From: Escherichia phage SholemSchwarzbard
Sequence record: PP925840.1
Direction: 5' to 3' (one strand)
Length of the DNA stretch: 64,000 nucleotides
Positions 55,802 through 59,985 of the stretch are shown here, piece by piece (within the stretch, counting starts at the first letter, position 1; every line of letters begins with the position of its first letter). The position numbers were made by a program, and so were the translations under genes. The notes under the pieces are model-generated. The model was not told the DNA's origin. It did not search any database and saw only the letters and a program-made list of their open reading frames with translations.

Positions 55802-55831
55802 ACTATAACACAACACGAGGGACTTGTAAAC
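55802..55831 (-). promoter_or_regulatory. T4-type early promoter (-35 GTTTAC, -10 TGn-TATAGT)
   Basis: Minus-strand GTTTAC at 55826-55831, 18-nt spacer, TATAGT at 55802-55807. Confidence 0.5.
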
Positions 55832-57888
55832 TACATCTTGAACTTTTTAGACATTCCGTTGATGTTAACCAAAGAAGCCAAGATTTGAGAAACTTCGTTT
55901 TCCTCTTCTTTTGATTCTTCTACAAGGAATTGATTAAACCCAGCCATTGGACGAACTTCACCAGTTTCCATTAGATGATCGCCATCATATACCGATTCTT
56001 CTAATTGTTCAGAAGGAGGAACGATTGTGCCTTCGATTAGATACTTGTTATAAGCAGTTTCTTTCATCATGTACGTGCTTACTTTATTAATCTTCAACAA
56101 AATTCCACGCGGTAGAATAACTTCAGCTTCTGATGGAAATCCTGATAAATGACCTGGAACGATAACTTTGATTCGTTCAGCCCCTTTAATTACCATACCT
56201 ACGCTAGTTTCAGCATCTTCATTCGCATAAGCAGAATGACTGCCCATATGCATTAAATCTTCAGCATCAACAGAACCTTCTCCTTCACCAGAAAATACTG
56301 CGCCAGAATCATCTAGAGCCATATAGTTTTTACCATGCTCACCGAAGATATTTGGTTTAAGCGATGTTGATACGAAGTTCTTGAAATAGAACATTTTATT
56401 TTCAATATTGTGGCGTAAAGTTTTAAAAGTAACTTCTTGTCCACGATAAAGCGTAGTTCCCGGAGGAAGAACTGAACCTTTGGCAAAGGCAGAATCCATT
56501 GTCTCGATGTGTTTAATAGCTCGTTCCATGTATTCTTCACGGGTAGAATCTGGTTTACCCAAGAGGAACGAGTTCATTTCAACATATGAATCTGCACAAT
56601 AATCTTCAATTACATCAGACTCAGCCTGAGTTAATCCTTTTGGAGTTACTTCGGTGCTTGCGTATTCATATGCCTGAGCAGCAGATTCATTAATCAATTT
56701 ATAAATGCTATTCATGACAAATTGAATAATAGCTACTTTTTCGTCTGGCGTGGCTTTAGAACCTTTAACTAAATCATTGATAATTTTCTTAATAACATCA
56801 AAGCTATTAGAAATATTAATGTCAGCGAGATCGCTTAAAATTTTATCGGTTTTATAATCAAAGAATTCTTTATTCTTTAAATATTCTTGAGAACCTTGAT
56901 GTGTTATATCGCTCTGCAGTCTGATAGACGGATCACGTAAACGTGCATGGGCCAATGCAATATGATTTCGGAAGCTTTCTAGTTCATAATCGTTAGATTT
57001 AAAACGAGAAGCACTTCTCATACCACCGATAGCTCCTTTGCCGAAGTTGGAACCAATCTGAATAACGCCAGAGTTCATTGGTCCTTCTGCTTTATATACC
57101 GGAACTTTAGATTCAAACTCTTGATATTTCTTAGCGGCGAAGCTATCGCCCTGGAGTGAAGCATCGACAGTAGAATATTGAGCTTGCGCTGCTAATCGAC
57201 GACTAATTTTAGTTTTCTGAATAACAGCTTGATCCGTGCGCTTATCATTTTCTAAAGCAATAGAAGCAGCAACAGCAACAGCTTTAGGAACAGCATTACC
57301 TGTTTTAACATCTACATAAACATCACCAACCTTTGATTCAACTTTTGTGAATAACTCAGTTGAAATAGGAGGTACACCTGGAATGTCTTCTAAATTGGCA
57401 TTTTTACGGTAAACCATAATATATGCATACTTTTTATCATAATCCCAGATTTCCTTTAAAAGAACATATCGACCTGCTCCTTTAGTACGTACTAAACGGT
57501 CAGCAATAACTTGCATTTGACGAGCTGCGCCATTTGTTTTACTTTTTAGTACGCGGAATAGGCATGCATCAATTTTATACTGTTTCATTGTTTGAAGAGC
57601 AGTATCAAAAACCGCATTAATGACACCAATTGGATTTCCACCCAAGTTTTTAAGTTTAACTAATGATAGTTTCTCATTGACACCTATCATTACGATATGC
57701 ATCATTTTATCGCCTGGCTTAACGTTTTTATTTGTATCACCGCCAGAGGTGTATGTACAAAATCTAAATCCAGGAAGCACGCTTTCTTCACCGGCTTGAA
57801 TAGCAAAAATTTGAGGTATTTTATGCTTAGGATTTAAGTTAACAACCGGCGCCGAAGCGCCGTCAAATAATTCTGTAATAAGTTCCAT
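55831..57888 (-). CDS. Alt-like ADP-ribosyltransferase paralogue (685 aa)
   Basis: N-terminus MELITELFD...; C-terminal R-S-ExE signature (LYRGQ, FVSTSL, AEVILPRG); AAGGA SD overlapping the upstream alt stop. Confidence 0.85.
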   Translation of the reverse strand: MELITELFDGASAPVVNLNPKHKIPQIFAIQAGEESVLPGFRFCTYTSGGDTNKNVKPGDKMMHIVMIGVNEKLSLVKLKNLGGNPIGVINAVFDTALQTMKQYKIDACLFRVLKSKTNGAARQMQVIADRLVRTKGAGRYVLLKEIWDYDKKYAYIMVYRKNANLEDIPGVPPISTELFTKVESKVGDVYVDVKTGNAVPKAVAVAASIALENDKRTDQAVIQKTKISRRLAAQAQYSTVDASLQGDSFAAKKYQEFESKVPVYKAEGPMNSGVIQIGSNFGKGAIGGMRSASRFKSNDYELESFRNHIALAHARLRDPSIRLQSDITHQGSQEYLKNKEFFDYKTDKILSDLADINISNSFDVIKKIINDLVKGSKATPDEKVAIIQFVMNSIYKLINESAAQAYEYASTEVTPKGLTQAESDVIEDYCADSYVEMNSFLLGKPDSTREEYMERAIKHIETMDSAFAKGSVLPPGTTLYRGQEVTFKTLRHNIENKMFYFKNFVSTSLKPNIFGEHGKNYMALDDSGAVFSGEGEGSVDAEDLMHMGSHSAYANEDAETSVGMVIKGAERIKVIVPGHLSGFPSEAEVILPRGILLKINKVSTYMMKETAYNKYLIEGTIVPPSEQLEESVYDGDHLMETGEVRPMAGFNQFLVEESKEEENEVSQILASLVNINGMSKKFKM

Positions 57889-57891
57889 GAT

Positions 57892-59985
57892 TTATCCTTG
57901 AACGAACTTGTAAGGCATGTTTGTAATATCTATGTAAGATGCAATAATTCCAAGAGATGATTCTACTTTTTGTTTAACATTTGATGAAACAAATGATGCA
58001 AAGTCAACTCTGTCTTCTATTTCAATACCACCTGTCATTGCAACTACTTCACCAGTTTCCATTAGACGGTCACCGTCATAAATTACTGATTCGGTGAGTT
58101 CTTCCGTAGTCATAACTTCAGCTTGAATGAGTTTTGTATTATTAGATGTTGTTCCGTCATTATTAGAAGCATCAGTTATTTTATTAACTTTGACCATCAA
58201 TCCGCGTGGTAGAATAACTTCAGCTTCTGTTGCTATTCCGAGACTTCCTGGATATACAACATTAACTTTATGAGCTCCATCAATTGCCCATCCTATTTGA
58301 ACTTTAACGTATTCAGGATTTTCTTTATACGCTCTTATTTCGCTTGGATTAATAGTTATTCCTTCTTCATTTTTATCAACTGTTAATTCATTACGAGCTT
58401 CTGGTTCTAAAAGACCAATACCAGCATGTGTAATTCCAAAACGTCCAAAAATGATAGGAGTTAAAGAAGTAGATACAAAATTTCTGAAATAGAACACTTT
58501 ATTTTTAACTAGTGCTTCATATATAGGAGCAGTCATACTTTGAGCACGATAAACTGTAATGCCTTCTGGTATACGGTCACCATTTTCAAAAGCTGAATCT
58601 AAGTTATTTATAGCAGATTCAATTTCTTTTTCACTCATTACATCATATCGTTCTGGATTGTAGCGTCCTAAAAGAAGATTATTGATGTCAGTATATCCTG
58701 AACCGCAATACTCTCTAATGCCACGCTTTTGTGATGGAGTATATTTAGAACCATCACGGGCAATAGTAATATCAATCATTGGACCTGCACCAATTCCAGA
58801 GAAACTATAAATCATTCTTTTGAGGAATTTAGTTTTTGTCGCGTTCCAGGAATTTTTAGTTATTTCTTCCCAGACTTCATCTGGCTGTCCTTTACGTGTT
58901 TTATTATGTTTATCAAGCCAATTATCTTTATATTCTTCAAAGAATTGATTAACAGCTGCTGCGTATTTCTCTAAACATTTTATTGAAGTAGTTGGTTCAT
59001 TTTTAATCGCATTAAGAATTACATCTTTAATTTTTTCAGAAACTTCATTAACCTCACTTTTTGAAAAGAATTTATAGTCATAATGAAGTTCATCTGCAGT
59101 TCCTTCAGCAATAATTTTTGCTGCCTTAGTTTTAGAAGCTAATGAATTAATTCCAAGCTTCATTTCTTCTGCTTCGGGAATTAAAGGAGCCGTAGCAGGT
59201 TTATTGAAATTAGCTGCGGTAGATTCATACTTTTGGAATAATTCACTTTCAAATCTAGAAGATTCTAATGATTGACTTTGTGCAATTGCTCTACGGGAAA
59301 TTTTAACTTTAACGATTACAGCTTGGTCAGAACGTTTATCGTTTTCTTGCGCAATAGATGCAGCAATTGCCTCATTTTTAGTTACTTGAGCTCCAGTATC
59401 TTTATTGATATAAACATCACCGACCTTCGATTCAACTTTAGTAAAGAGCTCGGTGCTAATTTCTGGAACTCCTGGAATGTCTTCTAGTGATACATTTTTG
59501 CGATGTATAAGAATATATGCATACTTTTTATCGTAATCCCAGAGTTCCTTAAGAAGGACGTATCTACCACCTGAACGACTACGGATAAGTCTATCAGCAA
59601 TAAGTTGAATTTGTCGAGCTTGACCAGCAGTTTTAGACTTAAGAATACGGAGCATACAGGCATCAATTTTATACTGACGCATCGTTTGCATCGCAACAGT
59701 AAAAACTGAATTGATGTAATTAATTGGGCTTGGACCGAGACCTTTTAATTTAGCAATTGAACCTTTAGCAGTTAATGTAAAAGGAACAATATGCATCATT
59801 TTATCGCCCATCTTTAAATCGCGATTAGTATCACCTCCAGATGTATAGGTACACAAACGAAAGCCTGGTTGTTCAATTGCGTCATCAACATGAACTGAAA
59901 AAATTTGCGGTATTTTCTTCTTTGGATTTAAGTTTGTAATCGGAAGAGTAGTATCTTCGTCAAATAATTCTGTAATGAGTTCCAT
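57892..59985 (-). CDS. alt: Alt ADP-ribosyltransferase, capsid-packaged (697 aa from second ATG)
   Basis: N-terminus MELITELFDEDTTLPITNLNPKKKIPQIF...; R-S-ExE signature (VYRAQ, FVSTSL, AEVILPRG); GAGG SD; late promoter upstream. Confidence 0.9.
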   Translation of the reverse strand: MELITELFDEDTTLPITNLNPKKKIPQIFSVHVDDAIEQPGFRLCTYTSGGDTNRDLKMGDKMMHIVPFTLTAKGSIAKLKGLGPSPINYINSVFTVAMQTMRQYKIDACMLRILKSKTAGQARQIQLIADRLIRSRSGGRYVLLKELWDYDKKYAYILIHRKNVSLEDIPGVPEISTELFTKVESKVGDVYINKDTGAQVTKNEAIAASIAQENDKRSDQAVIVKVKISRRAIAQSQSLESSRFESELFQKYESTAANFNKPATAPLIPEAEEMKLGINSLASKTKAAKIIAEGTADELHYDYKFFSKSEVNEVSEKIKDVILNAIKNEPTTSIKCLEKYAAAVNQFFEEYKDNWLDKHNKTRKGQPDEVWEEITKNSWNATKTKFLKRMIYSFSGIGAGPMIDITIARDGSKYTPSQKRGIREYCGSGYTDINNLLLGRYNPERYDVMSEKEIESAINNLDSAFENGDRIPEGITVYRAQSMTAPIYEALVKNKVFYFRNFVSTSLTPIIFGRFGITHAGIGLLEPEARNELTVDKNEEGITINPSEIRAYKENPEYVKVQIGWAIDGAHKVNVVYPGSLGIATEAEVILPRGLMVKVNKITDASNNDGTTSNNTKLIQAEVMTTEELTESVIYDGDRLMETGEVVAMTGGIEIEDRVDFASFVSSNVKQKVESSLGIIASYIDITNMPYKFVQG

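Follow-up and report, generated by a model that had tools for sequence, protein, structure and literature searches.

The gene pair at the alt locus

We have analysed a stretch of 64,000 nucleotides from Escherichia phage SholemSchwarzbard (PP925840.1), hereafter the window, which carries on its minus strand two tandem genes for Alt-type ADP-ribosyltransferases (ARTs), here designated altA (upstream) and altB (downstream). The window is a segment of a Tequatrovirus (T4-like) genome, and its list of open reading frames (ORFs) places genes 29, 48 and 54 on the plus strand and, on the minus strand, the order alt.-3 (55480-55770), altB, altA, alt.1 and DNA ligase gene 30. The bounds of the locus are those found in T4, with gene 30 and alt.1 on one side, alt.-3 and gene 54 on the other, and a late-promoter motif ahead of the genes. 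The altA ORF was listed as 57892-59988, coding for 698 residues; we have set the start at the second ATG (59985), which yields 697 residues, because this gives a better Shine-Dalgarno spacing and matches the start of T4 Alt.

A BLASTP comparison of AltA with AltB gives 40% identity along the entire chains (E = 5e-161). Both proteins match PHROG 802 from end to end (AltA 8.6e-271, AltB 3.5e-255) and exceed the gathering cut-off of Pfam PF03496 (ADPrib_exo_Tox; 1.8e-37 and 2.8e-20, respectively). BLASTP, Pfam and the alignments therefore agree on what an earlier note, made from the nucleotide sequence, had proposed, namely two intact Alt-type ART genes with a common N-terminal module, and the motifs quoted in it (MELITELFD, KIDAC, RYVLLKE[L/I]WDYDKKYAY and EDIPGVP[P/E]ISTELFTKVESKVGDVY) are all present. 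A second precomputed Pfam match, PF26846, accompanies PF03496 on all full-length family members and presumably represents the Alt N-terminal module. The similarity between AltA and AltB is unevenly distributed along the chain, amounting to 67.5% identity over residues 1-238, 12.8% over residues 239-411, 35% in the ART domain and 42% in the tail. The most diverged parts are the centre and, at 25% identity, the stretch between the STS and ExE motifs, in agreement with the strong divergence which had been pointed out for these regions.

The catalytic residues are R480, S505-T-S and E587-x-E589 in AltA and R482, S507-T-S and E587-x-E589 in AltB. In both proteins the R-S-ExE signature aligns with that of T4 Alt, ModA and ModB, being also invariant across an alignment of 56 representatives of the whole Alt family; neither copy is thus missing a catalytic residue, and the signature which had been described as intact is indeed so. 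The C-terminal domain of both proteins is predicted to have the ART fold, the AlphaFold2 model of AltA having a predicted local distance difference test score (pLDDT) of 82 and a predicted template modelling score (pTM) of 0.76. A sequence search of the PDB returned no match for AltB and only weak CdtA and iota matches for AltA, there being no solved Alt structure among the entries, and NCBIfam and PADLOC scans gave no matches. At the position three residues before the ExE motif, within the ADP-ribosylating turn-turn (ARTT) loop, AltB has a phenylalanine (F584) and AltA an isoleucine (I584). This position is aromatic in the C3 and iota toxins, and is occupied by Tyr, Phe or His in 43 of the 56 family members, T4 Alt being also atypical; as judged from the alignment, AltB looks like the family norm in this respect and T4 Alt like the exception. 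AltB further has an acidic loop (residues 518-554), predicted to be disordered, which sits between STS and ExE.

The architecture of both proteins, with an N-terminal module, a helical centre, an R-S-ExE ART domain and a C-terminal tail, is that of T4 Alt (gpAlt, NP_049811), a capsid-packaged NAD:arginine mono-ADP-ribosyltransferase (NAD, nicotinamide adenine dinucleotide) whose locus, late-promoter position and protease motifs are likewise those of AltA and AltB. Identity between AltA and T4 Alt is 72% overall (99% over residues 1-238, 32% in the centre and 66% in the ART domain), whereas AltB and T4 Alt are 42-46% identical, depending on the alignment. By sequence AltA is therefore the closer of the two to T4 Alt, of which it is a different allele in the centre and ART domain, and AltB is a separate paralogue which T4 has lost.

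The existence and kind of this gene pair are already known, since hundreds of GenBank and RefSeq genomes, T2 and T6 among them, carry it in their annotation, and duplications were remarked on by Nolan et al. (2006), who noted that alt.-1/alt.-2 of T4 and some ORFs of other phages resemble duplications of alt (PMC1524935). A megablast search with window positions 55400-60300 as query matched 544 phage records, 347 of them with at least 80% query cover at high identity, and many of these records bear the label 'Alt-like RNA polymerase ADP-ribosyltransferase (x2)'. The finding is thus ordinary in kind. Base composition gave no hint of recent foreign origin. The positions of all features are collected in Table 1.

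Table 1. Features of the altA-altB locus, in window coordinates.
Feature	Position	Strand	Remarks
Hairpin AAAGGCC-TTCG-GGCCTTT	60022..60039	minus	directly after alt.1, directly before late promoter
Late-promoter motif TATAAATA	60009..60016	minus	T4-type; 24 nt upstream of altA start codon
altA Shine-Dalgarno GAGAGG	59991..59996	minus	5 nt from ATG 59985; 2 nt from ATG 59988
altA	57892..59985	minus	upstream Alt-type ADP-ribosyltransferase gene; 697 residues + stop; at T4 alt position
AltA ITE-6 protease site	59968-59976	minus	homologous to T4 Alt ITE-6
AltA N-terminal module, residues 1-238	59272..59985	minus	alpha/beta domain, proposed capsid delivery; 99% identical to T4 Alt
AltA ART domain, ~residues 410-628	58102..58758	minus	Pfam, alignments, AlphaFold2 model
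AltA R480 codon	58546-58548	minus	catalytic
AltA S505 codon	58471-58473	minus	catalytic
AltA E587 codon	58225-58227	minus	catalytic
AltA E589 codon	58219-58221	minus	catalytic
AltA LTE-632	58090..58098	minus	homologue of T4 Alt C-terminal gp21 site LTE-619
altA/altB junction	57886..57899	minus	AAGGA 57895-57899, TAA 57892-57894, atc, ATG 57886-57888
altB	55831..57888	minus	downstream Alt-type ADP-ribosyltransferase gene; 685 residues + stop; intact form of T4 alt.-1/alt.-2
AltB ITE-6 site	57871-57879	minus	homologous to T4 Alt ITE-6
AltB N-terminal module, residues 1-238	57175..57888	minus	67.5% identical to that of AltA
CTAAAAAGT, upstream copy	57541..57549	minus	5' end point of deletion giving T4 alt.-2
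AltB ART domain, ~residues 412-625	56014..56655	minus	Pfam, alignments
AltB R482 codon	56443-56445	minus	catalytic
AltB S507 codon	56368-56370	minus	catalytic
AltB E587 codon	56128-56130	minus	catalytic
AltB E589 codon	56122-56124	minus	catalytic
AltB LEE-631	55996..56004	minus	alignment column of T4 Alt LTE-619
CTAAAAAGT, downstream copy	55842..55850	minus	3' end point of T4 deletion

Remnant of AltB in T4 and evolution of the locus

Phage T4 (NC_000866) has, in sequence, alt (682 residues), alt.-1 (61 residues), alt.-2 (67 residues) and alt.-3, and the products of alt.-1 and alt.-2 (NP_049810 and NP_049809) are 95-98% identical to residues 1-56 and 62-116 of AltB. Aligning the T4 DNA (L001 5066-5451) with the window reveals two lesions, a deletion of 1 nt in an A-run near AltB codon 55 and a deletion of 1,699 bp whose end points are the 9-bp direct repeats CTAAAAAGT. 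The frameshift and the repeat-bounded deletion together indicate that alt.-1/alt.-2 is a pseudogene of full-length AltB, and as read from this alignment the remark in the T4 record, 'old duplication of the first part of alt', falls short of what took place, the ancestor having had a full-length second Alt. T4 hence does not have the same gene pair, and the earlier, tentative mention of a single alt in this phage is right in that it has one intact alt next to the remnant of AltB. In the searchable literature we have found no explicit account of T4 alt.-1/alt.-2 as the remnant of a microhomology-mediated deletion.

The intact pair is present in both T2 and T6, the record of the latter naming the second gene 'apparent insertion in alt.-2', and a second intact Alt gene occurs in about three quarters of the sequenced Tequatrovirus genomes, T2 and T6 included. 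The last 455 residues of AltB have matches of at least 95% identity in 401 phage records, the next-best matches reaching at most 60%. The upstream gene exists as at least two alleles, the T4 type (682-686 residues) and the AltA type (697 residues), and in phages ES19 and SH7 a T4-type Alt lies next to an intact AltB, which argues that the loss of AltB is specific to the T4 sub-lineage. We had also considered about 100 singleton clusters (682-685 residues) as a sign of hypervariability in T4-type Alt, a notion that was dropped, as all of them join at 90% identity or more under single linkage.

Selection was assessed from pairwise ratios of nonsynonymous to synonymous substitution rates (dN/dS) among the window, ime09, T2 and T6. 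The values are 0.015-0.049 for altA and 0.026-0.050 for altB, in the same low range as those of the neighbouring ligase, gp48 and gp54 (0.015-0.12), and both genes are under strong purifying selection.

Outside this genus, three tandem Alt genes occupy the same locus in the Dhakavirus phages C6 (of Escherichia; L006 165-6425) and ABTNLS3 (of Salmonella; L007 334-6446), and three tandem Alt-like genes are found at this locus in Aeromonas phage GomatiRiver_11 (Straboviridae; L008 3838-8877); the alt locus is therefore, across the family, an array of one to three copies. Over the C-terminal 290 residues, the identity of AltA to the Dhakavirus copy C6_1 / ABT_2 is 84%; for AltB and copy 3 of Dhakavirus, which adjoins alt.-3, it is 60-61%, and the remaining cross-pairs are at 36-46%. 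The N-terminal 235 residues have the reverse pattern, with 63-89% identity among the paralogues of one genome and 43-46% between genera. For reference, the flanking core genes of Tequatrovirus and Dhakavirus are 57-65% identical. In windows of 40 residues, AltA and C6_1 (L006 165-2249) are 32-45% identical over residues 1-160 and 88-98% identical over residues 401-640 (window 58065-58785), and their C-terminal tails are 38-53% identical. A breakpoint of the same sharpness is evident between AltA and T4 Alt, which are 98-100% identical over residues 1-240 and then 15-52% over residues 241-400; sharp boundaries of this kind, with a conserved part for delivery on one side and a variable effector on the other, are characteristic of polymorphic effectors.

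These comparisons indicate that the split between AltA and AltB is syntenic and older than the split between the genera. A recent duplication in situ was rejected, since the N-terminal regions are only 69% identical in DNA and each ART lineage has its counterpart in the other genus. The ART domain of AltA is far more alike across genera than the module, the tail and the flanks, which is a signature of the exchange of ART cassettes, and a transfer of this part of AltA between genera is probable; the N-terminal modules, on the other hand, have probably been homogenised within each phage or become co-adapted to it. The pattern fits a design made of a delivery module plus an exchangeable effector. 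In the searchable literature we have found no description of the contrast of genus-specific N-terminal modules with effector domains common across genera.

We have also looked for N-terminal Alt modules fused to cargo other than an ART. In three proteins of 485-1142 residues (P0198, P0218 and P0229), the match to the Alt profile is confined to its N-terminal 140-220 positions, and Pfam and PHROG scans gave no ART match; degenerate ART motifs are visible by eye in P0198 and possibly in P0229, and none in P0218, so that such a fusion could not be established. In Acinetobacter phages ZZ1 and Henu6 there are proteins named 'split RNA polymerase ADP-ribosylase' (BFVD I3WW50, A0A410T5F4, A0A410T542), from which it would seem that some lineages encode the Alt N-terminal module and the ART domain in separate ORFs.

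Expression signals, packaging motifs and related systems

Ahead of altA, the minus strand reads in succession a hairpin, TATAAATA, GAGAGG and ATGATG. The hairpin is a putative terminator, and TATAAATA, which occurs 24 times in the window against 9.5 expected (pattern search), would act here as a promoter by analogy with the established T4 late-promoter consensus. The late-promoter motif which had been attributed to the upstream copy is hence present. At the other end of altA, altB starts 3 nt past the altA stop codon with a Shine-Dalgarno sequence of its own (AAGGA), and a scan detected no minus-strand terminator-like site between the two genes. The same spacing of 3 nt separates T4 alt from alt.-1, copies 1-2 and 2-3 of Dhakavirus C6, and copies 2-3 of ABTNLS3, whose copies 1-2 are 8 nt apart. 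From this arrangement we may reasonably infer that altA and altB are co-transcribed from the late promoter.

Beyond altB, an early-type promoter, (G)TTTACA-17 nt-TATAGT with TG, lies at 55802-55830 (minus strand), directly upstream of alt.-3 (DUF5498) and overlapping the AltB stop codon; on account of this T4 early-type promoter, alt.-3 has the look of an early gene that follows two late ones. The deletion in T4 stops just 5' of this promoter and leaves it untouched. Between the convergent genes alt.-3 and 54, a hairpin with a perfect 9-bp stem, ATGGGGACC-TTTC-GGTCCCCAT in the minus-strand reading, occupies positions 55454-55475; it is followed by a T-run (ATTTTTATTT) only in the plus-strand reading, that of gene 54. 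In the scan this hairpin is called terminator-like on either strand, and it may serve both genes. Elsewhere in the window, a cluster of 10 tRNA genes (5029-6623, minus strand) comprises Arg, His, Asn, Tyr, Met(CAT), Thr, Ser, Gly, Leu and Gln. The set differs from the 8 tRNAs of T4 (Gln, Leu, Gly, Pro, Ser, Thr, Ile, Arg) in that it includes His, Asn and Tyr, and no Pro gene was called.

T4 Alt is a head protein, present in about 40 copies and ejected with the DNA (PMC9026906), and the prohead protease gp21 cuts it after ITE-6 and LTE-619 to a product of 68.2 kDa, as determined by mass spectrometry (PMC5694885). Both sites have their equivalents in AltA and AltB (Table 1). Among the 56 family representatives, the P1 residue is Glu in 54 at each site, E6 included, and P3 is Leu or Ile in 50 at the first and 49 at the second. 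The predicted masses of the mature proteins are 70.2 kDa for AltA and 69.1 kDa for AltB (residues 7-631), and the same calculation reproduces the published 68.2 kDa of mature T4 Alt. The retention of the cleavage sites and of the N-terminal module supports, short of proof, the packaging and injection that had been suggested for both copies, and the processing of AltB.

Comparison with other ARTs and other injected proteins helps to situate these enzymes. ModA and ModB belong to one ART clade with the Alt proteins (PMC5512222), as also apparent from the alignment of the R-S-ExE residues, but are early, non-packaged, stand-alone ART domains of about 200 residues, 16-18% identical to AltA and, unlike AltA and AltB, devoid of the N-terminal module and of protease sites. 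Vis, C3bot, Certhrax, iota Ia/CPILE-a, VIP2 and CdtA are secreted bacterial toxins with other delivery domains than Alt; in comparison with these C3-like and binary-toxin ARTs, the Alt proteins have in addition an insertion of about 40-60 residues between STS and ExE and a phage-capsid delivery module. In terms of delivery, there is a likeness to the T-even internal proteins Ip1-Ip3, which have a capsid targeting sequence and, like Alt, combine a short N-terminal propeptide removed by gp21, packaging in the head, ejection with the DNA and a highly variable cargo. Ip1 and Ip2 are counter-defence proteins, Ip3 having so far only been hypothesised to be one (PMC9026906; PMC12373910). The internal proteins are, however, small non-enzymatic inhibitors at about 360 copies per head, whereas the Alt proteins are enzymes of 76-78 kDa, T4 Alt being present in about 40 copies, and possess a large, structured module at the N terminus as well as a second propeptide at the C terminus.

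Proposed targets and role of the two enzymes

Taking these observations together, we regard it as probable that AltA and AltB are both arginine ARTs delivered by the capsid and that their targets differ. In this proposal, altA and altB would be transcribed late, as one unit, from the promoter upstream of altA. Each protein would be brought into the prohead core by its N-terminal module, which is genus-specific and about 240 residues long. There gp21 would trim both after ITE-6 and after the L-x-E at about position 631, and the resulting mature enzymes of about 69-70 kDa would be kept in the head and ejected with the DNA. In the new host they would use NAD+ to mono-ADP-ribosylate arginines of host proteins, R-S-ExE being the arginine-specific type of signature, and would most likely modify different host targets. 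The earlier suggestion of different substrates is plausible from the sequences: the helical centres of the enzymes and those parts of their ART domains that recognise the substrate belong to two old, separately conserved lineages, from which different targets would most likely follow, the ART lineages having been kept apart across genera, and the ARTT residue is F in AltB and I in AltA. In C3-like ARTs, the segment from STS to ExE carries substrate-contacting loops. The known targets of T4 Alt include RNA polymerase alpha (Arg265) and MazF, among others.

Several points weigh against this proposal. The translational coupling of altB to altA which had been asserted beforehand is, in the strict sense, only a possibility, and a second exact TATAAATA lies inside altA (58605-58612, minus strand; codons A-I-N-N), about 720 nt upstream of altB, which could be a chance match or a separate late promoter for altB. 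T4 and some relatives grow well without AltB, which is therefore dispensable in laboratory hosts. In the searchable literature we have found no functional, target or proteomic study of AltB, nor virion, activity or target data for AltA-type or AltB-type enzymes. The only virion proteome found for a phage with both genes is that of SH7, in which mass spectrometry detected the upstream copy only, with 2 peptides, among 13 proteins overall (PMC5238451). At this very low depth the dataset is uninformative about AltB. We had considered the 'ADP-ribosylase' of these virions as a candidate AltB and discarded it, its coordinates being those of the upstream T4-type copy.

The lack of proteomic detection is what favours the view that AltB is an active but unpackaged ART, which would act late in the producing cell, for instance on proteins of the host or the phage or on AltA, or be released only at lysis. 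The protein nevertheless keeps the ITE-6 propeptide, an N-terminal module 68% identical to that of AltA and a C-terminal L-x-E at the column mapped in T4 Alt, all of which are without evident use in an unpackaged protein, and as the SH7 data are too shallow for a negative, we regard this view as unlikely. We are at least as reluctant to see in AltB a redundant copy, directed at the same targets as Alt and AltA, RNA polymerase alpha among them, and retained for the sake of dosage or robustness. The two proteins do share family, catalytic residues and overall fold, and T4 has lost AltB at no obvious cost; yet their ART domains are 35% and their central domains 13% identical, effectors of the AltA and AltB types are conserved as separate lineages in another genus, the ARTT residue differs, and the purifying selection on AltB is as strong as that on essential genes, which is unexpected in a spare copy.

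It is less likely still that AltB has a target or a chemistry other than protein arginine and plain NAD, such as the attachment of NAD-capped RNA to proteins, as in ModB, or the modification of a nucleic acid or a small molecule. Such a reading would draw on the long acidic disordered insertion between the STS and ExE of AltB and on the fact that family members differ in chemistry, ModB being reported to carry out RNAylation (10.1101/2021.06.04.446905). Lastly, the frameshifted and deleted remnant in T4 could be taken to mean that AltB is a decaying duplicate heading for loss elsewhere also, but a full-length ORF with all catalytic residues at 95% identity or more in 401 records, a dN/dS of 0.03-0.05 and an ortholog in Dhakavirus effectively refute this.

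The preferred reading, that of two injected enzymes with different targets, can be extended into a more speculative picture, which we put forward as a tentative possibility that we ourselves find doubtful. The alt locus would consist of one to three 'warheads' in a row, injected from the capsid and built in the manner of polymorphic toxins, in which the delivery module is genus-specific and uniform within a genome and the ART cassettes are swapped between genera, and AltB would disable a host factor or a defence beyond the reach of T4 Alt. If this were true, the loss of AltB would be among the causes for which T4 differs from T2 and T6 in host range or in its sensitivity to defences.

What is known of injected phage ADP-ribosyltransferases comes nearly all from T4, which is a reduced case: the model phage is without a gene which strong selection maintains in most related phages, and the job of AltB has never been studied, probably because T4 holds only a broken stub. 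If AltB is injected and has targets of its own, then the takeover of the host by most T-even phages would, in its first seconds, include a modification programme that has never been examined and which, by analogy with the action of Alt on MazF and of Ip1 and Ip2 on GmrSD, could include counter-defence.

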